From Escherichia coli (GTDB taxonomy: Bacteria > Pseudomonadota > Gammaproteobacteria > Enterobacterales > Enterobacteriaceae), in the NCBI RefSeq assembly GCF_030384885.1, contig NZ_CP128613.1: a stretch of 64,000 nt of DNA. The stretch is one strand, 5' to 3'. The position numbers and the translations under genes were made by a program. Below, piece by piece: positions 1,117 through 53,007 of this stretch. The notes under the pieces are model-generated. The model had not been told where the DNA came from. It saw only the letters and a program-made list of their open reading frames with translations, and did not search any database. The number at the start of each line of letters is the position of its first letter. Positions within the stretch are counted from its first letter, which is position 1.

Positions 1117-1199
1117 TACCTGAGCCTGCGCATGTTTAACCAAGTCTGGCAGGAAATATACACGAAATGAATAATCTGAAAACCAGGCTTACACTTCCT

Positions 1200-2084
1200 T
1201 TACTTTGCAATGAGATCGGGGTCAACTTCGCTTAACCGGCTTCGTTTTGACAGGTTGCCGGTCTTTCTTTTTTTCACTTTCGCCAGTTCTTCCGCAGAGT
1301 AATGCGACGCGACATCCAGCCGTCGAAGCCCCATCTTGATGTACTCACTGTTAATCTCAATACCAATAAATTTTCGCCCGCTGGCGGCGGCTACGGCACC
1401 GGTAGTAAAGCTACCGGCAAACGGGTCGAGAACGATATCGCCTGGGTTGGAAGAGGCGAGAATAATGCGTTTCAGTAAGGCTTCCGGTTTTTGCGTCGGG
1501 TGATTCTCATATTCATCCATCAAATAACGCACGCGCGGAAAATCCCAGACGTTACCCGGTACTTTTTGATGATTGTAAGGCTGTGGAGGATTTTTGCGAT
1601 AATCGATCAACGCGCGCTGCGATCCGGTTTTGGCTTCTACCAGAATAGCATCACCGTTGAACGTGTAGTTCTTTGCGTCTTTCACCATCATCAGGATGGG
1701 TTCGTACATGGAGCCGTAGTGTTTTTTCGCCTGCACTCCAGAACTGTCATATGACCAGACGATGCGACTTTTGATGGTAAAAAGCTTGCGGCACTGGAGA
1801 TCGATAAAGGGCATGTTTTCCGTGCTGTTCATGATGTACATGCTGCCCTGCTTTTTCAGAACGCGGTGGCACTCTGCAATCACTTCAAACAGCCAGTCGA
1901 TAAACAGATCTTCTTTCCAGGCTTCGATCAGACCATCAAAATTTTTACCGATGTTATACGGTGGGTCGGCAAAGATTAGATCTACACTTTCGGCGGGGAT
2001 CTTTTTAAGTTCGGTTAATGCATCACCCTGGATGATGGTCTTTGCTTCATTACCAAATCGGGTCGGTTCACATCCTGTTCTCAT
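1200..2084 (-). CDS. yhdJ: DNA adenine methyltransferase YhdJ
   Basis: ORF 1200..2090; N6-adenine methyltransferase motif DPPY (IFADPPYNIG) and SAM-binding region (VLDPFAGSFTTG); start taken at the third codon to give 294 aa. Confidence 0.85.
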   Translation of the reverse strand: MRTGCEPTRFGNEAKTIIQGDALTELKKIPAESVDLIFADPPYNIGKNFDGLIEAWKEDLFIDWLFEVIAECHRVLKKQGSMYIMNSTENMPFIDLQCRKLFTIKSRIVWSYDSSGVQAKKHYGSMYEPILMMVKDAKNYTFNGDAILVEAKTGSQRALIDYRKNPPQPYNHQKVPGNVWDFPRVRYLMDEYENHPTQKPEALLKRIILASSNPGDIVLDPFAGSFTTGAVAAASGRKFIGIEINSEYIKMGLRRLDVASHYSAEELAKVKKRKTGNLSKRSRLSEVDPDLIAK

Positions 2085-2109
2085 GGTCACTCCCTTTGTG
2101 ACACTTATA

Positions 2110-2147
2110 AAAAAGGCGCTTCCCCATGCCGAGTAGCGCCTTTTTAA
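2110..2147 (-). terminator. Rho-independent terminator downstream of fis
   Basis: GC hairpin aggcgct...agcgcct flanked by A/T runs (aaaaaggcgcttccccatgccgagtagcgcctttttaat), just beyond the fis stop. Confidence 0.6.
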
Positions 2148-2169
2148 TCAAGCATTTAGCTAACCTGAA

Positions 2170-2466
2170 TTAGTTCATGCCGTATTTTTTCAATTTTTTA
2201 CGCAGCGTACCACGGTTGATGCCCATCATCAGCGCAGCACGGGTCTGGTTACCACGGGTGTATTGCATCACCATGTCCAACAGGGGCTGTTCTACTTCAG
2301 CCAGTACCAGCTCATAGAGGTCATTCACATCCTGACCATTCAGTTGAGCAAAATAGTTCTTCAGTGCCTGTTTAACCGAGTCACGCAGGGGTTTTTGGGT
2401 TACCTGATCCTGAGAGTTAACGGTAGAAACGGTCAGTACGTCAGAATTTACGCGTTGTTCGAACAT
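2170..2466 (-). CDS. fis: nucleoid-associated protein Fis
   Basis: 98 aa; the sequence [98 protein letters not shown] matches Fis by recall. Confidence 0.97.
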
Positions 2467-2491
2467 AGTTCTGTCAGCTCTTTATTTCTGT

Positions 2492-3457
2492 TTACGCAAA
2501 ATTTTCGAAGTATGCCTCCAACGCCTCCAGCTGTTCGCTGGCATCCTCAATGGCGTTGAATGTGCGCCGAAACTGGTCATTTGGAGCGTGTTCCTGGAGA
2601 TACCAGGAAACGTGTTTACGTGCAATTCGGTACCCTTTTGCCGGACCATAAAAGTCATGCAGTTCCCGAACGTGCGCGCAAAGCAAGCGCTTAACCTCTG
2701 CCAAAGGCAGCGGGGGCAGCAACTCCCCAGTGTCCAGATAATGCTGGATTTCCCGAAAGATCCAGGGTCTTCCCTGAGCTGCGCGGCCTATCATCAGGGC
2801 ATCCGCCCCTGTATAGTCGAGCACAGCTCTGGCTTTAAGCGGGTCAGTAATGTCGCCATTCGCGATAACCGGAATGGAAACTTTCTGCTTAACTGCCCGA
2901 ATACTGTCGTACTCAGCTTCTCCATTGAACAAACAGGCGCGTGTTCGGCCATGAATGGTCAGAGCCTGAATGCCACAGTCTTCAGCCAGTTGGGCAATCT
3001 CTTCGCAGTTACGGTGTTCCGGCGCCCAGCCGGTGCGAATCTTCAGGGTAACAGGAACGTCCACTGCATTGACGACCTCGGTAAGGATCGATTTAACGAC
3101 ATCCGGGTACTGCAAGAGGGCTGAACCTGCGAGCTTGCGATTCACTTTTTTAGCCGGGCAACCCATATTGATATCAATAATCTGGGCACCGCTTTCCACG
3201 TTAATACGTGCTGCATCTGCCATTTCTTTCGGATCGCTACCAGCAATTTGCACGGTGCGAATACCGGGTTCATCAATGTGCACCATCCGTAAACGAGATT
3301 TGTCGCTTTCCCAAACCTGTGGGTTAGAAGACATCATCTCGGATACTGTCAATCCGGCTCCCATCTCGTAGCACAACGTCCGAAAAGGTCTGTCTGTAAT
3401 GCCAGCCATGGGCGCTGCGATCAGGCGATTTCTGAGCTGATATTGTCCGATGCGCAT
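2492..3457 (-). CDS. dusB: tRNA-dihydrouridine synthase B
   Basis: 321 aa TIM-barrel Dus family ([26 protein letters not shown]...); directly upstream of fis as in the dusB-fis operon. Confidence 0.95.
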
Positions 3458-3785
3458 GAGTTAAGAAATGACCATACTGTGACTGCAAGGCGGCGTATAT
3501 TACGCATTTTTTGCACGAGATGAAAGGCCAAACTTTGACCAATCCTCTGAGATGGATCAAAGAATTGCATTTAAAATGAGCTTAGCGCGATAATTACTCA
3601 TAAAAATCATTATATTAGAAAATAGTGACTAAAATTTACACTCCAAGAAATTTGAGTAAGTTCTCAATTTTTCTTTATGAATGAAAATTTTGGCACGCAA
3701 ATCTGCGTAAATAATCGGCAAATTAACGTGCCTTTTGTGACCTTGCTCGCACTTCGCCTTGCGTCACCATACGGCGATGCGAAGG
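3458..3785 (-). promoter_or_regulatory. dusB-fis promoter / upstream regulatory region
   Basis: 328 bp intergenic region upstream of dusB with an A/T-rich stretch (about 3560-3700); known from the literature to carry the Fis-autoregulated promoter. Individual sites not mapped here. Confidence 0.5.
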
Positions 3786-4667
3786 TTAATTCTTACGACC
3801 GGTAATGCGGCACCACTCTTCTTTTTCCACGACCGGGTCCAGAGCGAAGCTGTCGGCATAAGCTTCACAAACGCTCTCTGCCTGGCTTGCCAGAATACCG
3901 GAAAGGCCCAGCAAGCCACCTGAAACCGGCAGGACGCTGATTAACGGTGCCAGTTCACGTAATGGGCCTGCAAGGATGTTAGCGACCACCACGTCGGCTT
4001 TCATTTCTTCTGGCTGATCTTTAGGTAGGTAGAGCTCCAGACGGTCAGAAACGCCATTACGTTCGGCGTTGTCGCGGCTGGCCTGAATCGCCTGCGGATC
4101 AATATCAATACCAATGGCTTTTGCTGCACCCAGTTTCAGCGCCGCGATAGCCAGAATGCCGGAACCACAGCCAAAGTCGATGACCGTTTTACCGGTTAAA
4201 TCGAGGCTGTCGAGCCATTGCAGGCACAGAGAGGTGGTTGGATGAGTCCCTGTACCAAACGCCAGCCCTGGGTCTAACATCACGTTAACGGCGTTTTCGT
4301 CCGGCACATCACGCCAGCTTGGGCAGATCCACAGTCGTTCACCAAAGCGCATCGGGTGGAAATTATCCATCCATTCGCGCTCCCAGTCTTTATCTTCCAG
4401 TTGTTCGATTTTGTGCGCGAAGCCTGCGCCGAGCAGCGGATGATTCTCCAGAATCGCCACTACTTCATTCATGTCGGTTTCAGCATCGAACAGACCAATC
4501 ACATCGGTGTCGCCCCACAGGCGCGTTTCGCCCGGAAGCGGCTCAAATACAGGCGTATCGTGGGTATCCTGAAAAGTGATAGAAACGGCACCCGCTTCCA
4601 TCAGCGCATCGCTAAGATCTTCAGCATTCGCGCCGGTAGTGTTCAGTTTCAGTTGGATCCAAGGCAT
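3786..4667 (-). CDS. prmA: ribosomal protein L11 methyltransferase
   Basis: 293 aa with a SAM-methyltransferase motif ([20 protein letters not shown]); conserved position downstream of panF. Confidence 0.95.
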
Positions 4668-4678
4668 GGCAAAACTCT

Positions 4679-6130
4679 TTATTTATCAGTAGTCAAAACG
4701 GTAGCTTGCGGGACGGACGTACCGAAACGGTTTCCGACCAGGAAAGCCAGCAAACTTAGCAGTAACGAGGGCACGATAGGGTGGAAGCCCAGGTACTGAA
4801 TATTCAGGGTCGCAAGTACGGCATACAGCACGCCGCCAACGATCATCGCACTTAGCGCGCCTTTGGCGTTAGCGCGTTCCCAGTAAAGACCCAGCACCAG
4901 CGGCCACAGGAAGACAGCTTCCAGCCCACCGAAGGCCAGCAAATTCAGCCAGATGATCATTTCAGGCGGCTTCCATGCAGCAAGCAGCAGCAACGCGCCG
5001 AGAATCAACGTAATCACCGCCGACATCCGCTTCAGGCGCGTCTCGTTTTGCATTTGATCCGGACGGATATTCAGATAGAGATCTTTAATGATCGTAGCGG
5101 AACTTTGCAGCAATTGGGCGTTGATCGTCGACATGATCGCAGCCATAGGAGCTGCAAGGAAGATCCCGGCAGCAAATGGTGGCAATACTTTTACCATCAA
5201 CGTCGGGATCACCAGGTCCGGTACGGTGAGATCGGGGATCACTGCACGACCTAATGCTCCGGCCAGGTGCATACCGAACATCAGGATTGCGACCACAATC
5301 GTACCGATGATGATCCCCCGATGTACGGCTTTGCTGTCTTTATAAGAGATACAGCGCACCGCAGTATGCGGCAGGCCAATCACGCCAAAACACACCAGCA
5401 CCCAGAACGACGTCATAAACGCAGGTGACAGAATATCGTCAGCGCCTTGTGGCGTAACCAGTTGCGGATCGATGGTTTGCAGCGTCTCTACTGCATTGCT
5501 TAAGCCGCCAGCAGCATGGACCACGCCAATAAGCAGCACAATGGTGCCAATCAGCATCACCAGCCCTTGCATGGTGTCGTTCAGCACGCTGGCGCGAAAG
5601 CCGCCAAAGGCGGTGTAGAGCGCAATGCTGATGCCAAAAATCAGCAAACCTGTTTCATAAGGGATACCCGCCGCGGTTTCCAGCAGGCGCGCACCGCCGA
5701 TAAACTGCACGGTCATCGCACCAACGAACGCAACCAGCAAACTCAAACTCGCCAGCCACACCAGCAGGCGACTCTGGTAGCGGGCAAACAGCATATCGTT
5801 CAGCGTCACCGCATTGTAGCGGCGCGCGAGAATCGCGAACTTCTTGCCGAGAATACCGAGCGAAAGCCAGACCGCAGGTAGCTGAATCATTGCCAGCAAT
5901 ACCCAACCCAGGCCGTATTTATAAGCAGCTCCTGGCCCGCCGATAAACGAACTGGCACTGATATAGGTCGCGGTGAGCGTCATCGCCAGCACAATACCGC
6001 CCATAGAACGGCTGCCGAGGAAATACTCATTGAGGAAGGTGCCGGTGTTCCGTTTACGCATTGCATAAACTGAAATCCCGAACACCACCACCAGATAGGC
6101 GACCAGCGGTAGAATCACTTCAAGCTGCAT
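4679..6130 (-). CDS. panF: sodium/pantothenate symporter
   Basis: ORF 4679..6136; multi-TM SSS-family transporter; start taken at [13 protein letters not shown] to give 483 aa. Confidence 0.9.
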
Positions 6131-6380
6131 CGTCATCCTCCAGCGGGATATCGCGATAGATAAATTTCACCATCGCCCAGCACAGTCCAATAAACAGCAG
6201 CGGCGTCAGGATGCAAGCCATCTCAAACCAGCGTGGAAAGCCGGTAAAACCGGAGGTAACGCCAGGTAAGTAAGCGGCTACTAACCATACCGCCAGATAC
6301 AAAAGGGTCAGCCCCAGCGCCCAGCGCGCCTCTTTATGGGCCTGAACAAAACGAGTGTCCACGGAAGGGGTCCTCCTCAT
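6120..6380 (-). CDS. yhdT: small membrane protein YhdT (DUF997)
   Basis: Small two-TM ORF overlapping the panF start; an alternative GTG start at 6362 would give 80 aa. Confidence 0.75.
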   Translation of the reverse strand: MRRTPSVDTRFVQAHKEARWALGLTLLYLAVWLVAAYLPGVTSGFTGFPRWFEMACILTPLLFIGLCWAMVKFIYRDIPLEDDDAA

Positions 6381-6454
6381 GGGGGGATACGAGAAACGGG
6401 CAATTCTACGGCAACTCTTCAGGCAGGGAAAATAATCTGACAGAAAATTGCCGT

Positions 6455-7411
6455 TCAGTGCTCCTGCAAAAAGTCTTCAATGTCAGCCAGTGAGGATACC
6501 CCTTCCATCGGACCTTGCCGCATTACCGCGAGCGCGCCGCTGGCATTTGCATATTGCAGCGCCTTGTGTGCCGGGATACCGGATAAGAAAAGAGTGACAA
6601 ACGTTGCGCCAAAGCAGTCGCCTGCACCCGTTGGATCGATTATTTCGATATCGTGGCCTGCAACATGCTTGGCGTGTAATGTTCCGTTTTTAAGCTTGTA
6701 ATAGCTGGCCCCACGCTGGGCGCGTTTTATCGCCACATGTTTTACGCCGCCGTGGAGAAGATCGCTAACAATCTGTTCTTCTGACAGATTTTTGTGACGC
6801 GCGAAGAAAGGGAGTTCGCTTTCGCTGGGGATAAAAATATCCGTATATTCAATCAAATAATCGAGAGCCTGCGCCATTTCAGGAATACTCAGCATCTCTT
6901 TGCGAATATTGGGATCGAAAGAAACGGTGCCGCCAGCCGATTTGATCGTCGTTATTGCTTTACGCATGACATCGATCATGCGAAATGAGAACAATGATGA
7001 GCCCACAATATGCAGATGGTTACACTGTTTTAGCAGATCCTTATCAATGTGCTCGGCAGTAAACAAACCGCAGGCGCTGTTAGGGATATTAAAGACGAAA
7101 TCCCGCTGCTGTGGATTTTGATAACTTACGAACGCCGTACCTGTCACGGCATTGTTCATCACGTGGATCCCATCGGTAATGACACCTTCATGACGAAGAC
7201 GTTCTACAATGAGTCGGCCAAAATCATCATTACCAACACATCCGAAGAAGATGGCCCGATGGGACAGTTTTGCCACTTGAGCTGCAAAAATTGCAGGCGC
7301 ACCGCTAGGAAATGGCCCGATAAACTCCCCCGGCTGAGTGAATTTTTGATGTGGGTTGCGGGACAAAAACTCGGCCAGCAATTCGCCCATAGCGCAGATA
7401 GTTATTGTCAC
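6455..7411 (-). CDS. pfkB-family carbohydrate kinase (island kinase 1)
   Basis: ORF 6455..7465; GTG start at 7409-7411 preferred because it has a GAGAGGGG Shine-Dalgarno and aligns with the paralog at 12944..13906; ribokinase/pfkB signature DPTGAGDCFG near the C-terminus. Confidence 0.8.
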   Translation of the reverse strand: MTITICAMGELLAEFLSRNPHQKFTQPGEFIGPFPSGAPAIFAAQVAKLSHRAIFFGCVGNDDFGRLIVERLRHEGVITDGIHVMNNAVTGTAFVSYQNPQQRDFVFNIPNSACGLFTAEHIDKDLLKQCNHLHIVGSSLFSFRMIDVMRKAITTIKSAGGTVSFDPNIRKEMLSIPEMAQALDYLIEYTDIFIPSESELPFFARHKNLSEEQIVSDLLHGGVKHVAIKRAQRGASYYKLKNGTLHAKHVAGHDIEIIDPTGAGDCFGATFVTLFLSGIPAHKALQYANASGALAVMRQGPMEGVSSLADIEDFLQEH

Positions 7412-7421
7412 AAAACCCCTC

Positions 7422-8252
7422 TCATTCCTGAAGCCTTTCGCGATTGGACCAGGTAAAGCACTCATTACTGGTATAAAGGATAACGAAATCAGCCGACTGC
7501 AATTGTTGCTGATATTGTTCGTTAATGCTGCGGCTGACGATCACATTTTCTGCCTGATGCAAATGTCCAATGGCTGCCGTTGATGGCGCAGGATCGGCGG
7601 CAACGATAACTGTCTTATTCTGGGCATTATCGAAACAGAGCTGCCAGGCAGCGGCAAGTCTGGGAACGTTGATATTTAAAGTACCATCAGCATCCAGATG
7701 GCTGATTTCCAGAATGCTGTGTGTAATGGTGAAATGCTGAAGTGCCTGTTCGAGCGGTTTTCCGGCCAGTGCGGTGTCGGGGCGCAGCATTTCACTGCCA
7801 GCCAGTATTATTTCGCCATCAATAAACTGATTTGCCAGCAGCGCATGTTCGGGATCGTTGGTGATCAGACGCAGTTTTTTCACTTCGCTGAGCAATGGAA
7901 TGATCTTACGGCAGATTGTCCCATGTCCAAGAAATAGCGTGTCACGATCCCGAATTAACCGTGCGCAATGTCGTGCTATTTCCATTTGTTGTGCCAGAGA
8001 CAATGGCGCGATCGGTTGTATCGCTTCTGGTTCAGAGGAGAGTGGTGTCGCAATAGCACCGCCAAATGATCGCTTTAAATATCCCTGTTGCTCCAGATAA
8101 CTGAGATCGCCGCGGATCGTCACGCCAGAGACACCAAGTTGCGCAGATAAGTCATCAACTTTGATTTCACCCTGGGCGGCAACAATTTCTGCAATTTTTA
8201 ATCTGCGTTTCAGTAGGTTAGACGATTTTCTCGGCACGTTAACACTCTTCAT
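7422..8252 (-). CDS. DeoR-family transcriptional regulator
   Basis: 276 aa; N-terminal DeoR-type HTH region (RRLKIAEIVAAQGEIKVDDLSAQLGVSGVTIRGDLSYLEQQGYLKRSFGGA) followed by a DeoR-C sugar-phosphate-binding domain. Confidence 0.85.
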   Translation of the reverse strand: MKSVNVPRKSSNLLKRRLKIAEIVAAQGEIKVDDLSAQLGVSGVTIRGDLSYLEQQGYLKRSFGGAIATPLSSEPEAIQPIAPLSLAQQMEIARHCARLIRDRDTLFLGHGTICRKIIPLLSEVKKLRLITNDPEHALLANQFIDGEIILAGSEMLRPDTALAGKPLEQALQHFTITHSILEISHLDADGTLNINVPRLAAAWQLCFDNAQNKTVIVAADPAPSTAAIGHLHQAENVIVSRSINEQYQQQLQSADFVILYTSNECFTWSNRERLQE

Positions 8253-8420
8253 TGGCCTTTAATGCGTAACACTATAGCCCCTTGTATTTTTCTTTGAAAG
8301 TTACCCTTCAATAATATCGACAATTCGAAAATAAAAGCATAGGGCAAAAATTGCAGCAAAAATAGCTTAATGCATTGAAAATAAATGAATATTTCCATAT
8401 CTGTCCAAAGGCATCATTGG

Positions 8421-9447
<1,027 letters not shown>

Positions 9448-9481
9448 GACGTTGTACCCTACAAAACAATGAGGATTGTTT

Positions 9482-10372
9482 ATGAAAAATATTAAATTAC
9501 TTGGTTCCGCTATGATGGTGAGCCTGGCATTGTTCTCGCAAAGTTCATTGGCAAAAGAGTATAAAATTGGAGCTTCATTATTAACACAGCAACACCCTTT
9601 TTATATCGACCTCGCAAATGCAATGAAAGAAGAGGCGAAAAAAGACAATGTCAATTTAAGTGTCTCTATTGCCAATCAGGATTTAAACAAACAGCTTTCT
9701 GATGTTGAGGATTTTATTACTAAAAAGGTAGATGCCATTATTATCTCTCCAGTCGATTCGAAAGGTGTCCAGGCAGCGATAATTAAAGCCGATAAGGCTG
9801 GTATTCCCGTTATCACCGTTGACGTTGCCGCGGAAGGCGTTCCGGTCGTATCGCATGTTGCGACCGATAATTACGCGGGAGGCGTTGAAGCTGGTAAGTT
9901 AATGGGCAAACTTTTGAATGGTAAAGGTACTGTAGCCATTATTTCTTATCCTGCACTACAATCGGTGGTTGCGCGCGTTGATGGTTTTAAGAAAGGGTTA
10001 AGCGAGACACCGGATATTAAAATTGTTGCTGAACAGCTAGGTATAACGCGGGCTGAAGCGTTAACGACTGCGCAAAACATTATGCAGGCCAACGCCAACC
10101 TGAATGGTCTGTTTGGCTTTGGTGATGATGCGGCGTTGGCAGCGGTTATCGCAGCGAAATCTGCGCATAACGACAACATCAAAATCATTGGTTTTGACGG
10201 CATGAAAGAAGCGCGTGATGCCGTTGACAGTGAAAAAACGTTTGCGGCCGTGATTCGGCAATATCCCTATCAAATGGGTGCTAAAGCCATTGATGCTGCT
10301 GTTGATCACCTCAATGGTAAACCGGTAGAAAAAATGATCCCGGTACAACCCGGCGTTTATACAGGTAAATAA
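9482..10372 (+). CDS. periplasmic sugar-binding protein of ABC transporter (PBP1, CUT2 family)
   Basis: ORF 9476..10372; ATG at 9482 has a GAGGA Shine-Dalgarno; signal peptide MKNIKLLGSAMMVSLALFSQSSLA followed by a ribose-binding-protein-like fold. Confidence 0.85.
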   Translation: MKNIKLLGSAMMVSLALFSQSSLAKEYKIGASLLTQQHPFYIDLANAMKEEAKKDNVNLSVSIANQDLNKQLSDVEDFITKKVDAIIISPVDSKGVQAAIIKADKAGIPVITVDVAAEGVPVVSHVATDNYAGGVEAGKLMGKLLNGKGTVAIISYPALQSVVARVDGFKKGLSETPDIKIVAEQLGITRAEALTTAQNIMQANANLNGLFGFGDDAALAAVIAAKSAHNDNIKIIGFDGMKEARDAVDSEKTFAAVIRQYPYQMGAKAIDAAVDHLNGKPVEKMIPVQPGVYTGK

Positions 10373-10387
10373 TAAACATCTTCATTT

Positions 10388-10418
10388 CACAACAAAACGT
10401 TATCGACGTTTTGTTGTG
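10388..10418 (+). other. inter-cistronic stem-loop between binding-protein and ATPase genes
   Basis: Perfect 12 bp inverted repeat cacaacaaaacg / cgttttgttgtg with a 7 nt loop, 15 bp downstream of the binding-protein stop. Confidence 0.45.
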
Positions 10419-10432
10419 ACACCGAGGTCATT

Positions 10433-11932
10433 ATGACGGATGTTATTCTTGATGTTTCGCATATTGCGAAGACATTTGGTCATGTTCAGGCATTAAAAGA
10501 TATTACCCTCTCTTTACGTAAAGGGCGGGTGCATACTTTATTAGGCGAGAATGGTGCCGGTAAATCGACATTAATGAAAATACTCGCCGGTGTTTATCCG
10601 CCAACCCAGGGAACGATAACACTACGTGGTGAAACCATCACCATTAATAATCCGCAGCATTCTCGCCAGTTAGGGATTGCGATTATTTTTCAGGAACTGA
10701 GCCTGAGTAATAATATGACCGTGGCGGAAAATATTTATGCCAATAATGAACCGCGACGTTTTGGCATTATTAACGATAAAAAAATGCTCGCAGATTGCCA
10801 GAATCTCCTCGCGGAACTGGGCATCCCACTGGATCCGCTGGAAATGGTCGGCAATATGTCGATGGCACATAGGCAACTGGTAGAAATTGCCAAAGCCTTA
10901 AGCTATGCAGCAGATGTCGTGATTATGGATGAACCGACATCTTCGCTAAGTGATAATGAAGCAGAGATTCTGTTTAACATTATTGAGAAATTAAAGCAGC
11001 GAGGTTGTGCGGTTATTTATATCTCTCATCGCATGGATGAAATTATGCGGATTTCAGATGATATTTCGGTGATCCGCGACGGTGAGTATATCGCTACGCA
11101 TGAAAAGAAAAACAGTGATATCCAGCATTTGATTGCCCAAATGGTTGGTCGGGAAATGAAAAATATTTGGCCAGCACGTCTTGGGGAAAAGCCGGATGAA
11201 AATGTTCCTGCAAAACTGGAAGTAAAAAACCTTTCCCATCCTTCGCTTTTTAAAGAGGTCAGTTTCGCTGTGCGTCCGGGGGAAGTCCTCGGATTTTTTG
11301 GCCTGGTGGGGGCCGGGCGTTCCGATGTGATGAAGGCGCTATTTGGCCTCGTTTCGTATCACGGGACTGTGTTGATTGATGGTAAGGAAGTCAGGATCGC
11401 TAATCCCAAACAGGCTATTGATCATGGCATTGCTTTTGTGACCGAAAACCGCAAGGAAGAAGGGTTAGTGCTGATGCACGACGTCAATATGAACACGCAC
11501 CATGTGGCGTTTCAATATAACGCTTCGCGGATGGGACTCATCAATCACCGACAAGAAGAGGCGAAGACGCTGCAATCTATTGCCAGAATGAACACTAAAG
11601 TGAGTTCAGTACATCAGGCAGTGGGAGCGCTGAGCGGCGGTAATCAACAGAAAATCGTGTTATCCAAGTGGCTGGAGAAAACTCCGCGTATTTTATTGCT
11701 CGATGAGCCAACGCGCGGAGTGGATGTCGGCGCAAAATTTGAAATCTATAACGTGATACGTCAACTGGCTGCGGCAGGGACAGCAATTATTCTGGTGTCC
11801 TCTGAACTGCCAGAGGTCATGGCACTTAGCGATCGTCTGGTGGTAATGCGTAATAAAACGATTGCCGATATTTATTCATGTGAAAATTTAACGCAGACAC
11901 AGGTAATGACCGCTGCAACAGGAGTACGTTAA
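10433..11932 (+). CDS. sugar ABC transporter ATP-binding protein (duplicated NBD, RbsA/AraG-like)
   Basis: 499 aa; two Walker A motifs (GENGAGKST, GLVGAGRS), ABC signature LSGGNQQK and Walker B LLLDEPT. Confidence 0.9.
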   Translation: MTDVILDVSHIAKTFGHVQALKDITLSLRKGRVHTLLGENGAGKSTLMKILAGVYPPTQGTITLRGETITINNPQHSRQLGIAIIFQELSLSNNMTVAENIYANNEPRRFGIINDKKMLADCQNLLAELGIPLDPLEMVGNMSMAHRQLVEIAKALSYAADVVIMDEPTSSLSDNEAEILFNIIEKLKQRGCAVIYISHRMDEIMRISDDISVIRDGEYIATHEKKNSDIQHLIAQMVGREMKNIWPARLGEKPDENVPAKLEVKNLSHPSLFKEVSFAVRPGEVLGFFGLVGAGRSDVMKALFGLVSYHGTVLIDGKEVRIANPKQAIDHGIAFVTENRKEEGLVLMHDVNMNTHHVAFQYNASRMGLINHRQEEAKTLQSIARMNTKVSSVHQAVGALSGGNQQKIVLSKWLEKTPRILLLDEPTRGVDVGAKFEIYNVIRQLAAAGTAIILVSSELPEVMALSDRLVVMRNKTIADIYSCENLTQTQVMTAATGVR

Positions 11933-12922
11933 ATGACAGAGAAAACTCTTGCCAGTCCGAAACCTTCGGAAATTCCCATTGCAAATAATTTTAAAAAAGT
12001 CTTCAGGCAATATGGCGGTATCCTCAGTGGAATGGTGGTGTTAATCATTCTGTTCAGTTTTATTAATGACAGTTTTTTTACTGCCAATAACATTACTAAT
12101 ATTATTCTTCAGGTTTCGATAATTGCAATTACCGCCTATGGAATGACTTATGTACTTTTGCTTGGCGATATTGATTTATCGGTCGGTTCAACCATTGCAT
12201 TGATTGGCACATTTGCTGCGCTTGGGGCTTCATGGGGAATTCCATTTATTTTATTGGTCCCATTATCCATTATTGCAGCCCTGGCTTTGGGGATGATAAA
12301 TGGTGGCTTGACGGCTATAGCGGGTATCCCTTCGTTTATTGTCACCGTTGCTACTATGGGGATCTTCCGTGGTATCGCTTATATAGTGACCGATGGTATG
12401 CCCATCATGATTAAAGATGATGCCTTTCTGGCGCTGGGGAATGGAGAATTTCTCTATATACCTATTCCTATCTGGATATTAATCATCTTATTGCTGATTA
12501 ACCACTTCATTCTTACTAAAACAACCTTTGGACGAAAAATTTATATCACTGGTGGTAATAAAGAAGCGGCAGTTTATTCAGGGATAAATGTCACCCGCTT
12601 GAAAATTAAAGTCTTTATGATTACAGCCGTGCTGGCAGGTATCAGCGGGATGATCCTCGCCTCACGCCTCTATTCCGGGCAACCGAATTCCGCGTTGAGC
12701 TACGAACTGGATGCTATTGCCGCGGCTGTACTGGGAGGCACCAGCCTGAACGGCGGCTATGGAACCGTGGTGGGGACGGTGATCGGCGCATTAACCATCG
12801 GCGTTATTAATAATGGCATGAACTTAATGAATGTTCCCTATTTTTACCAGATGGTGGTTAAAGGATTAGTCATTCTTGTAGCCGTTTATTTTGACGTAAG
12901 AAATAAAAGAAAACGCAGCTAA
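11933..12922 (+). CDS. sugar ABC transporter permease (RbsC-like)
   Basis: 329 aa polytopic membrane protein; ATG immediately after the ATPase stop codon. Confidence 0.85.
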   Translation: MTEKTLASPKPSEIPIANNFKKVFRQYGGILSGMVVLIILFSFINDSFFTANNITNIILQVSIIAITAYGMTYVLLLGDIDLSVGSTIALIGTFAALGASWGIPFILLVPLSIIAALALGMINGGLTAIAGIPSFIVTVATMGIFRGIAYIVTDGMPIMIKDDAFLALGNGEFLYIPIPIWILIILLLINHFILTKTTFGRKIYITGGNKEAAVYSGINVTRLKIKVFMITAVLAGISGMILASRLYSGQPNSALSYELDAIAAAVLGGTSLNGGYGTVVGTVIGALTIGVINNGMNLMNVPYFYQMVVKGLVILVAVYFDVRNKRKRS

Positions 12923-12943: not shown

Positions 12944-13906
12944 ATGAGTAAGGTCTTCACAATTGGAGAAATTCTGGTTGAAATTATGGCGAGTAAAATC
13001 GGCCAGCCATTTGATCAACCAGGTATCTGGAACGGCCCTTATCCCAGTGGTGCGCCCGCTATTTTTATCGACCAGGTGACACGTCTTGGCGTTCCGTGCG
13101 GCATCATTAGCTGTGTGGGGAATGATGGCTTTGGTGATATTAATATACATCGTCTGGCTGCTGACGGTGTGGATATCAGGGGGATTTCAGTCTTACCTCT
13201 GGAAGCTACCGGGAGTGCCTTTGTTACTTATCATAACTCTGGCGATCGCGATTTTATTTTTAATATCAAGAATGCCGCTTGCGGTAAATTATCGGCGCAG
13301 CATGTTGATGAAAATATTCTGAAGGACTGTACCCATTTTCATATTATGGGTTCATCCCTGTTTTCATTCCATATGGTAGACGCAGTAAAAAAAGCAGTAA
13401 CCATCGTTAAAGCAAATGGTGGCGTTATTTCTTTCGACCCTAATATTCGTAAAGAGATGCTCGATATTCCAGAAATGCGTGACGCCCTCCACTTTGTTCT
13501 TGAGTTAACAGATATCTATATGCCCAGCGAGGGAGAAGTGTTGCTCTTGTCGCCACACTCGACACCGGAGCGTGCAATCGCTGGTTTTCTTGAAGAAGGT
13601 GTTAAAGAGGTGATTGTGAAGCGCGGCAATCAAGGTGCCAGTTACTACTCCGCGAATGAGCAGTTTCATGTTGAGAGCTATCCGGTGGAAGAAGTTGACC
13701 CGACCGGTGCGGGAGACTGCTTTGGTGGCGCGTGGATTGCCTGCCGCCAGCTAGGGTTTGACGCCCATCGGGCATTACAATATGCCAACGCCTGCGGTGC
13801 ACTGGCGGTAACCCGACGTGGCCCAATGGAGGGAACGTCTCGCCTTGCGGAAATCGAAGCGTTCATCCAGCGCCATGACATGTCCATTCGGGAAGCAGCA
13901 CAATGA
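12944..13906 (+). CDS. pfkB-family carbohydrate kinase (island kinase 2)
   Basis: 320 aa; N-terminal GEILVE motif and C-terminal DPTGAGDCFG; clear paralog of the kinase at 6455..7411. Confidence 0.85.
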   Translation: MSKVFTIGEILVEIMASKIGQPFDQPGIWNGPYPSGAPAIFIDQVTRLGVPCGIISCVGNDGFGDINIHRLAADGVDIRGISVLPLEATGSAFVTYHNSGDRDFIFNIKNAACGKLSAQHVDENILKDCTHFHIMGSSLFSFHMVDAVKKAVTIVKANGGVISFDPNIRKEMLDIPEMRDALHFVLELTDIYMPSEGEVLLLSPHSTPERAIAGFLEEGVKEVIVKRGNQGASYYSANEQFHVESYPVEEVDPTGAGDCFGGAWIACRQLGFDAHRALQYANACGALAVTRRGPMEGTSRLAEIEAFIQRHDMSIREAAQ

Positions 13907-14949
13907 AAAACGAAATTTGGTCGTGGATTGGCGATCTCTCGCAGGTTGCCGGAATTAAACACTATGAGTTATGTAGTGGCAGATCAAAGGGGACAGAAGC
14001 GTTTGATGTCCGTACTGGTGCGGGATTGGCATTTACGGTGGTAAAAGATCGCGCGCTGGATATTGCATGGGCCAGCTACAAGGACACTGCGCTCTCTTTT
14101 ATCACCCCCAACGGCATTGTCGCCCCCGCTTTTTTTGAGTCTCAGGGCAACGGGTTTTTACGTAGCTTCTACGCGGGGTTACTGACTACCTGCGGACTTA
14201 GCTACATTGGCACGCCCTGTGAGGATAACGGAGAAACGCTGGGATTACACGGACGTTTGGCTGCGACACCAGCGGAAGAGGTGGGATATCGCACAGAACG
14301 GACCGACGACGGCATTGAATTTGTCATCAATGGCAAATTACGGGAAACGCGATTGTTCGGTGAAAATCTGACGTTGGAAAGGACCATTCGCTGCCGCTAT
14401 GGCGAAAATGTGCTGCGCATTGAAGACAAGGTGACTAATCATGGTTTCACCCGCCAGCCGCTGCAAATTCTTTATCACTTTAATTACGGCTGGCCTTTAT
14501 TATCGCCACAGGCAGAAATCTTGCTGTCGGCTAAAAGCGTAACGCCACGAACCCCGCATGCGGCGGAAGGGTTAACCAGTCATCTGGAGATTTGTACCCC
14601 ACAGCCCGGTTTTGACGAGCAGGTTTACTATCTCACGTTGAATAGCGACAGTCAGGGGATGAGTAAAGTTGCGCTGGTGAACGCCGAACTGGGGTGGGGA
14701 ATTTACGAGAAATTCGACACCATGCAGCTACCCAACTTTATCCAGTGGAAAAATTTAGGCGCGGGTGAATATGTTATGGGGCTGGAGGTCAGCAATAGTT
14801 TTCCTGACGGTCGTGATAAAGAACGAGCGCAGGGGCGTCTGCCCTTTATAGAGCCAGGGGAAACAAAGACATACTGCTTTGAGCTGGGAATTGTTGATGG
14901 CGATGCTGAAATTAGCGCGTTGAAAGCGGAAATTGCAAGCTACCGTTAG
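13903..14949 (+). CDS. DUF4432-like / mutarotase-like protein of unknown function
   Basis: 348 aa; start overlaps the kinase 2 stop (ATGA); family assignment from recall only and tentative. Confidence 0.65.
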   Translation: MKNEIWSWIGDLSQVAGIKHYELCSGRSKGTEAFDVRTGAGLAFTVVKDRALDIAWASYKDTALSFITPNGIVAPAFFESQGNGFLRSFYAGLLTTCGLSYIGTPCEDNGETLGLHGRLAATPAEEVGYRTERTDDGIEFVINGKLRETRLFGENLTLERTIRCRYGENVLRIEDKVTNHGFTRQPLQILYHFNYGWPLLSPQAEILLSAKSVTPRTPHAAEGLTSHLEICTPQPGFDEQVYYLTLNSDSQGMSKVALVNAELGWGIYEKFDTMQLPNFIQWKNLGAGEYVMGLEVSNSFPDGRDKERAQGRLPFIEPGETKTYCFELGIVDGDAEISALKAEIASYR

Positions 14950-14965
14950 CTAACGGCAATAAAAA

Positions 14966-14992
14966 CGCCGGGCAGCGTTAACAGGCCCGGCG
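14966..14992 (-). terminator. Rho-independent terminator downstream of accC
   Basis: Hairpin cgccgggc-N11-gcccggcg; on the minus strand it is followed by a T run (tttttattgcc), appropriate for ending accBC. Confidence 0.5.
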
Positions 14993-15040
14993 TTGATTAC
15001 GTTCTTTGCTAAGCGCGATGAAAACACCGCGCGTCACAAA

Positions 15041-50984: not shown

Positions 50985-51670
50985 ATGTCGTTACTTGCAC
51001 AACTGGATCAAAAAATCGCTGCTAACGGTGGCCTGATTGTCTCCTGCCAGCCGGTTCCGGACAGCCCGCTCGATAAACCCGAAATCGTCGCCGCCATGGC
51101 ATTAGCGGCAGAGCAGGCGGGCGCGGTTGCCATTCGCATTGAAGGTGTGGCAAATCTGCAAGCCACGCGTGCGGTGGTGAGCGTGCCAATTATCGGGATT
51201 GTGAAACGCGATCTGGAGGATTCTCCGGTACGCATCACGGCCTATATTGAAGATGTTGATGCGCTGGCGCAGGCGGGTGCGGACATTATCGCCATTGACG
51301 GCACCGACCGCCCGCGTCCGGTGCCTGTTGAAACGTTGCTGGCACGTATTCACCATCACGGTTTACTGGCGATGACCGACTGTTCCACGCCGGAAGACGG
51401 CCTGGCATGCCAAAAGCTGGGAGCCGAAATTATTGGCACTACGCTTTCTGGCTATACCACGCCTGAAACGCCAGAAGAGCCGGATCTGGCGCTGGTGAAA
51501 ACGTTGAGCGACGCCGGATGTCGAGTGATTGCCGAAGGGCGTTACAACACGCCTGCTCAGGCGGCAGATGCGATGCGCCACGGCGCGTGGGCGGTGACGG
51601 TCGGTTCTGCCATTACGCGTCTTGAACACATTTGTCAGTGGTACAACACAGCGATGAAAAAGGCGGTGCT

Positions 51671-51674
<4 letters not shown>
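50985..51674 (+). CDS. nanE: N-acetylmannosamine-6-phosphate 2-epimerase
   Basis: ORF 50943..51674; start [23 protein letters not shown] gives 229 aa. Confidence 0.92.

Positions 51675-53007
<1,333 letters not shown>

Follow-up and report, generated by a model that had tools for sequence, protein, structure and literature searches.

The closest described system to the one treated here is the D-tagatose locus of Escherichia coli, first reported in strain Nissle 1917 (Ha et al. 2022; PMC9720028) and later given its gene names, the divergent tagK and tagR and the operon tagYABCDE (Park et al. 2025; PMC12226905). In the published pathway TagABC imports tagatose, TagD converts it to tagatose-6-phosphate (Tag6P), the host PfkA forms tagatose-1,6-bisphosphate (Tag-1,6-BP) and TagY splits this to dihydroxyacetone phosphate (DHAP) and glyceraldehyde-3-phosphate (G3P) (PMC9720028). 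The last gene, tagE, is ECOLIN_RS18670 / HW372_RS02470 in Nissle 1917, and both papers label its product a putative aldose 1-epimerase (PMC9720028, PMC12226905). Here we analyze tagE in a 64,000-nucleotide stretch of E. coli contig NZ_CP128613.1 (assembly GCF_030384885.1), referred to below as the window. The results make it likely that TagE is an enzyme of the mutarotase type whose substrate is tagatose or its phosphate.

By its sequence, the island between yhdT and accC in the window is identified as the published D-tagatose locus and the open reading frame (ORF) of interest as tagE. The island's eight genes match that locus in their flanks and in their order, tagK-tagR / tagY-A-B-C-D-E, and the family assignments of TagD, TagY and TagA agree with the published route. 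The gene, the locus, its induction by tagatose and a family-level label ("aldose 1-epimerase family protein" in RefSeq) are already in the literature or in RefSeq, and tagE is a known entity. The tagE gene and the signals around it are as follows.

13903-14949, plus strand: tagE, encoding a 348-aa DUF4432 protein with a GalM-like fold, a putative D-tagatose mutarotase/pyranase; ATG start, TAG stop
13903-13906, plus strand: ATGA, combining the tagD TGA stop (13904-13906) with the tagE ATG start, as read from the sequence
13890-13895, plus strand: GGGAAG, a Shine-Dalgarno-like motif within the tagD coding sequence, 7 nt 5′ of the tagE ATG
14964-14994, no strand assigned: hairpin rich in G+C, with a 10-bp stem and an 11-nt loop, in the space that separates the convergent genes tagE and accC; probably a common terminator

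TagE is a DUF4432 protein with a mutarotase fold

The initial annotation of the stretch had recognized this ORF as DUF4432-like, possibly mutarotase-fold and without an assigned activity, and all three points hold up. A Pfam scan of TagE gave a single match, DUF4432 (PF14486; E 5.3e-104), over residues 29-329 and model positions 2-303 of 304, and PF14486 is carried by all 120 homologues among the matches listed. NCBIfam returned no match for TagE. The aldose 1-epimerase family PF01263, which holds GalM, YphB, YihR and YeaD, gave no Pfam match to TagE even at E<=10. An AlphaFold2 model built with 41 homologues has a mean predicted local distance difference test score (pLDDT) of 94.2 and a predicted template modeling score (pTM) of 0.92. 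When this structure was compared with the PDB using Foldseek, the top match was 3TY1, a Klebsiella "putative aldose 1-epimerase" (template modeling score 0.91), and a long series of galactose mutarotases and relatives followed at E 1e-13 to 1e-9, among them B. subtilis 4BZE/3MWX, YphB 3NRE, L. lactis 1L7K and human 1SNZ, all neighbors of the GalM type. A literature search found no functional study of tagE, of DUF4432/PF14486 or of 3TY1, and no experimental demonstration of an activity for tagE.

Three residues of TagE, H116 (in LHG), H192 (in YHFN) and E295 (in G-x-E-P), are invariant in the 41-sequence alignment, down to 42% identity. In a deep-profile alignment, made with hhalign between a 121-sequence DUF4432 profile and a 111-sequence GalM profile (1.8-billion-protein search) and collinear over 268 columns, they fall on His104, His175 and Glu309 of E. 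coli GalM. The equivalents in L. lactis GalM are H96, H170 and E304, the residues mutated in PDB 1NSU, 1NSX and 1NS2. The conserved residues of TagE do not hint at a metal or NAD site. The modeled fold and the conserved residues suggest that TagE has a mutarotase fold with a plausible, intact mutarotase catalytic set.

Two other families were compared with TagE. It is not an RbsD_FucU protein, as its only Pfam domain is DUF4432 and its structural neighbors are GalM-type, and neither Pfam nor NCBIfam gave a match to the Tag6P 4-epimerases (rhizobial TagE, GatZ-KbaZ-like). A defense-system reading of TagE was also considered and dropped, with no match in PADLOC or NCBIfam.

DUF4432 genes lie among genes for free-sugar use

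To place TagE within its family we examined 90 loci, comprising ten contexts with precomputed Pfam labels and 80 loci found by scanning 100,044 species genomes. The neighbors in the 80 loci were annotated by hidden Markov models from a limited reference set, and the counts given here are lower bounds; 28 of the 80 have no recognized neighbor. Within 5 kb and on the same strand, at least one recognized sugar gene occurs in 52 of the 80 loci and a sugar kinase in 31. By type of neighbor, the same interval holds a PfkB kinase in 17 loci, a GH38 alpha-mannosidase in 15, an FGGY kinase in 14, a ribose-type ABC transporter in 13, a gene of the mannitol-dehydrogenase family in 13 and a class II aldolase in eight. 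In many phyla, DUF4432 genes have as their neighbors sugar importers, glycosidases and enzymes for the initial step on unphosphorylated sugar.

Several arrangements recur. One combines a fucose-isomerase-like gene, an FGGY kinase, a class II aldolase and DUF4432. Another lacks a kinase and consists of LacI, an ABC transporter, DUF4432, a short-chain dehydrogenase/reductase (SDR) and a lactonase (L004, L047). In Bacteroidia, DUF4432 is found with GH38 and a D-lyxose/D-mannose isomerase (L014). At one locus (L002), that of one of the three near homologues given next, only a mannitol-dehydrogenase-family gene and a PfkB kinase stand beside DUF4432. Adjacency to a PfkB kinase was expected for the five closest non-enterobacterial homologues and was seen in three, which are the three nearest with readable context (57, 55 and 53% identity); for the other two (51% identity) the contigs are just 2.8-4.3 kb long, and a Zn-dependent dehydrogenase next to the gene is all that they show. 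By analogy with yihQ-yihR-yihS and yphFEDCB of E. coli K-12, this distribution would be as expected for a free-sugar mutarotase.

One orthologous locus, from Klebsiella spallanzanii (L017; NZ_CABGGS010000010.1, 1119-9041), has no tagY: tagR is followed directly by tagA, while tagABCDE and tagK are kept. The association of TagE is therefore with the transporter and kinase, not the aldolase.

The Bacteroidia arrangement was seen in more detail in metagenome-assembled genomes, as the module GH38 - DUF4432 - D-lyxose/D-mannose isomerase (NF051472, E 5e-84) - PfkB-like kinase - mannitol-1-phosphate-dehydrogenase-like gene. Its PfkB-like kinase is divergent and 400 aa long. Loci with this module are L032-L037, L040, L044, L050, L051, L053 and L068, for example L036 at 5281-12179. 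It looks like an undescribed catabolic route for mannosides or mannose.

The published tagatose route has no gap for an epimerase

The initial annotation had taken an epimerase or isomerase to be the missing step of the module and TagE to be the obvious candidate for a novel enzymatic activity. Neither idea is supported by the published pathway and the protein itself. TagD, host PfkA and TagY together take tagatose to triose phosphates, and the route therefore requires no epimerase or isomerase. Related clusters of alpha- and beta-proteobacteria encode a Tag6P 4-epimerase at the tagE position and have no aldolase, and the aldolase is found only in clusters that lack the Tag6P epimerase (PMC9720028). 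By our own reasoning, the dependence on pfkA would also be expected if the route ran through fructose-6-phosphate (F6P), so this dependence alone does not exclude an epimerase route. The case against such a route rests instead on the aldolase gene and on the features of TagE. As for novelty, the His/His/Glu set and the family's neighborhoods point to ordinary mutarotase chemistry, and the sole unusual element of TagE is its likely substrate, a ketose.

A proposed role for TagE in tagatose use

Phosphorylation at O6 requires a furanose or open form of the sugar, since in the pyranose of a 2-ketohexose this oxygen is part of the ring. We consider it somewhat probable that TagE is a cytoplasmic D-tagatose mutarotase/pyranase that gives the furanose for 6-phosphorylation; the substrate, the logic of the ring forms and the non-essentiality are what we infer here. 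In this proposal TagABC would deliver free D-tagatose, mainly as alpha-pyranose, to the cytoplasm, where TagE, using a GalM-type His/His/Glu acid-base set, would open and reclose the ring and so speed the interconversion of pyranose with furanose and of the anomers. TagD would then receive the form with a free 6-OH and make Tag6P, and host PfkA and TagY would finish the route to DHAP and G3P. Two published observations underlie the proposal: D-tagatose is predominantly alpha-pyranose (PMC12429656), and the pathway depends on 6-phosphorylation of tagatose by TagD (PMC9720028). TagE would act as an accessory accelerator and not as an obligatory step, which fits the rhizobial tagatose clusters that do without the gene. 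Such a partnership is established for three other pairs, RbsD with ribokinase, GalM with GalK and NanQ with NanK. Whether TagE would be the first ketose-specific pyranose-to-furanose converter of the GalM superfamily, and DUF4432 a new mutarotase family, we regard as evenly poised.

Several points weigh against this proposal. We know of no GalM-superfamily enzyme that acts on a ketose, and spontaneous tautomerization of ketoses is fairly fast, such that the benefit of TagE may be small. DUF4432 genes occur in many aldose contexts, for example beside a mannose isomerase, and the family is therefore not intrinsically ketose-specific. The equivalence with the GalM residues rests on a collinear alignment and on fold homology: hhalign gave a probability below 1% for DUF4432 against GalM with shallow profiles (E. 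coli GalM alone, or GalM with YeaD, YphB and YihR, each compared with the 41-sequence alignment) and with the deep ones. Our literature search found no assay and no single-gene deletion of tagE. In alpha- and beta-proteobacteria, clusters with a homologous ABC transporter and tagatose kinase contain no DUF4432 gene (PMC9720028), and any such role is therefore dispensable.

The alternatives were weighed against the same evidence. TagE might instead be a sugar-phosphate mutarotase that interconverts Tag6P between its alpha- and beta-furanose anomers and supplies the one used by PfkA, which would parallel the role of YeaD and yeast YMR099c for hexose-6-phosphates. We think this unlikely. The fold of TagE does not by itself separate such an activity from that of a free-sugar mutarotase. 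The contexts of the family do bear on the choice: the same invariant residues are present in the kinase-free clusters of ABC transporter, DUF4432, SDR and lactonase (L004, L047) and in members located between a glycosidase and a free-sugar isomerase, which indicates that the common substrate class of the family is unphosphorylated sugar. That furanose-phosphate anomerization is fast without an enzyme also counts against it. A more doubtful possibility is that TagE is a mutarotase for another sugar, such as an aldose that TagABC also imports or that is set free in the gut, with tagatose merely a laboratory substrate of the cluster. This would suit the aldose contexts of DUF4432 (GH38 with a mannose/lyxose isomerase; a fucose-isomerase-like gene with an FGGY kinase), the scarcity of tagatose in nature, and the G+C content at third codon positions (GC3), which is 0.53 in tagE versus 0.40-0.45 in the transporter genes. 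It is opposed by the content of the E. coli cluster, which has no aldose-ketose isomerase or dehydrogenase able to use an aldose, and by the finding that the operon is induced >40-fold by tagatose and suffices for growth on it, growth that deletion of tagD abolishes (PMC9720028).

The remaining two explanations depart further from a D-tagatose mutarotase/pyranase. We judge it very improbable that TagE is non-catalytic or vestigial, be it a sugar-binding accessory, a passenger, or a stabilizer of TagY in the way that GatZ stabilizes GatY. In its favor, TagY resembles GatY and no gatZ-like gene is found in the cluster. Against it stand the strong purifying selection on tagE (the ratio of nonsynonymous to synonymous substitution rates, dN/dS, is 0.06-0.07), the invariance of the candidate catalytic residues, and the linkage of tagE to the kinase, kept where tagY is absent. 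A GatZ-like chaperone of TagY in particular was given low weight, as tagE and tagD remain together in the locus without tagY. The least probable explanation of all is the one that the initial annotation had raised, new chemistry on a mutarotase scaffold, for example 4-epimerization of Tag6P to F6P or isomerization of a ketose. The former would add a second E. coli route parallel to the aldolase, with TagE filling the slot of the rhizobial epimerase. TagE does lie at the position of the Tag6P epimerase gene in clusters of the S. meliloti type, and the published pfkA dependence is, as argued above, equally expected through F6P. The first gene of the cluster, however, encodes a tagatose-bisphosphate aldolase, and epimerase clusters lack an aldolase just as aldolase clusters lack an epimerase (PMC9720028). 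Furthermore, TagE has no similarity to epimerases of the GatZ/KbaZ type or to other epimerases, DUF4432 being its only Pfam match; its conserved residues form the mutarotase acid-base set with no indication of a metal or NAD site, and the family contexts suit use as a mutarotase.

The tagD-tagE overlap and expression signals

tagE is a real gene and no chance ORF, given its prevalence in genomes, its low dN/dS (the value above was obtained against one E. coli and one Enterobacter orthologue) and the conservation of its overlap with tagD across genera. As the initial annotation had noted, the start of tagE overlaps the stop of tagD ("kinase 2") by ATGA at 13903-13906, and orthologues keep the overlap. 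In orthologous loci it reads ATGA in L015, L016 and L018 and TGATG in L017; by taxon, ATGA occurs in Escherichia, Superficieibacter and Enterobacter, and TGATG in K. spallanzanii. The orthologues of other genera with the overlap kept have ~83% amino acid identity, with synonymous sites saturated. A GGAAG motif is located at equal distance from the tagE start in four orthologous loci.

The overlap had also been taken to imply stoichiometric co-expression of the two genes. Coupled expression is supported, whereas strict stoichiometry is not: tagE has a conserved Shine-Dalgarno motif of its own that permits independent initiation, and the overlap is therefore no proof of a fixed ratio.

The placement of tagE as the last gene of the island operon was correct, as it is followed by the hairpin and then by the convergent accC. 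RNA folding of the hairpin at 14964-14994 gave a minimum free energy of -23 kcal/mol (z -2.0), and a terminator scan placed it on the minus strand, at 14979-14964. Its T-run is on the accC side only. It looks like the terminator of accC that also serves the tag operon. The tagE stop codon lies within a short palindrome, CGTTAGCTAACG, at 14944-14955.

Alleles and distribution in E. coli

Of 5426 complete E. coli genomes, 1421 carry a full-length tagE. The allele of the window is uncommon among these: it is matched at >=99% identity in two of the 1421 genomes, and the remainder are at 95-99%. It is 100% identical to that of strain 2013C-4282, and the window is E. coli chromosomal DNA. On the basis of this allele comparison, the window appears to hold a minority lineage of the island. 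Relative to TagE of Nissle 1917, tagE of the window is a rarer allele with no functional difference evident.

Two unusual copies were observed. One genome carries tagE twice, once on a plasmid; in total the gene occupies 1421 chromosomal places and one plasmid place. A 493-aa NCBI protein, P0017, joins PfkB and DUF4432 domains, and where it matches TagE the identity is 98%. A frameshift or indel in the ATGA overlap has probably fused tagD and tagE here, either in a single genome or through an assembly error.

Other genes and sites of the island

The remaining features of the island are listed in the order in which they occur.

6455-7390, minus strand: tagK, a second PfkB sugar kinase ("kinase 1"), RefSeq coordinates
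7422-8252, minus strand: tagR, a DeoR-family tagatose-responsive repressor
8524-8566, no strand assigned: tagO1 and tagO2, the TagR operators, sequences from PMC12226905
8593-9447, plus strand: tagY, a class II tagatose-1,6-bisphosphate aldolase; the operon starts with this gene
9482-10372, plus strand: tagA, a periplasmic sugar-binding protein of the RbsB/AlsB type, RefSeq start at 9482
10433-11932, plus strand: the tag operon gene between tagA and tagC in the order tagYABCDE
11933-12922, plus strand: tagC, an ABC transporter permease by RefSeq annotation, name from PMC12226905
12944-13906, plus strand: tagD, a PfkB-family D-tagatose kinase ("kinase 2")

The two operators lie in the intergenic region of 341 bp that separates tagR from tagY, where tagO1 (8524-8542) has one mismatch and tagO2 (8548-8566) is exact. 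The operon that starts there includes tagE, which in Nissle 1917 is itself induced >40-fold by tagatose (PMC9720028). TagY scored above the cut-off on two NCBIfam models, the GatY subfamily (521 bits) and TIGR01858 (472 bits), and the top NCBIfam matches of TagA are RbsB (E 1e-45) and AlsB (E 5e-29). On the NCBIfam TagKinase model (NF049991), for which the cut-off is 420 bits, TagD reached 414 bits and TagK 348 bits. Deletion of the tagD orthologue in Nissle 1917 (EcN) abolishes growth on tagatose (PMC9720028).

TagK is 51% identical to TagD and only ~2-fold induced (PMC9720028), and according to published work it is unable to substitute for TagD. TagK may be a 1-kinase for Tag6P, or its substrate may be a different ketose. 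With the longest ORF, 6455-7465 (336 aa), tagK would share 44 nt with tagR; the start in RefSeq is later, at 7390.

The GC content of the island is uneven. It is 42-45% in tagA, tagB and tagC (GC3 0.40-0.45) versus 50.4% in tagE (GC3 0.53), and that of tagE is close to the chromosomal flanks. The unevenness may reflect a mosaic origin of the operon or different degrees of amelioration.

Significance

The tag locus provides growth on the food sweetener D-tagatose to E. coli of phylogroup B2 and to some others. Its carriers include Nissle 1917 and many extraintestinal pathogens, and the locus is also used as an inducible expression system. If TagE is indeed a ketose mutarotase/pyranase, the tagatose pathway would be completed, DUF4432, a family with hundreds of members in many phyla and one orphan structure (3TY1), would gain a biochemical function, and GalM-type chemistry would be extended to ketoses. 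This would be a useful yet incremental result and would not amount to a new kind of system.

Comparison with known systems

The structure nearest to TagE, 3TY1 (KPN_04629 of Klebsiella pneumoniae, from structural genomics), is 27% identical, is 384 aa in length and belongs to a different subfamily. GalM itself (E. coli b0756; L. lactis 1L7K) is 10-16% identical to TagE, with no PF01263 match in TagE and a non-significant profile-profile score, and it acts on aldoses, whereas the proposed substrate of TagE is a 2-ketohexose. YeaD (2HTA) and YMR099c (2CIQ) act on phosphorylated sugars; the kinase-free DUF4432 contexts argue for a free sugar in the case of TagE.

The Tag6P 4-epimerase of S. meliloti and A. 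tumefaciens shares with TagE of E. coli the name "tagE" and the place after the tagatose kinase (PMC9720028). In sequence the two are highly divergent, and they differ in chemistry: the epimerase converts Tag6P to F6P in clusters without an aldolase (PMC9720028).

In its position in the operon, tagE resembles other genes for enzymes of this kind. galK and galM of K-12 form a kinase-then-mutarotase pair whose genes overlap by GTGCTGA. The N-acetylneuraminate anomerase NanQ (YhcH) is encoded by the last gene of nanATEKQ, the same operon logic as for tagE; it belongs to an unrelated protein family and has a different substrate. The nan operon is present in the same window at 51632-53007, and there the nanQ ATG overlaps the nanK stop as ATGA at 52543-52546.

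A parallel in function would be RbsD, which Ryu et al. in 2004 are said to have described as the D-ribose pyranase of rbsDACBK. RbsD, acting between the importer RbsACB, of the ribose type, and ribokinase, converts the imported pyranose to the furanose for a PfkB-family kinase. We propose the same logic for TagE, whose partner TagA has RbsB and AlsB as its top matches; since the fold and family of the two proteins are unrelated, the likeness would be one of functional analogy only.

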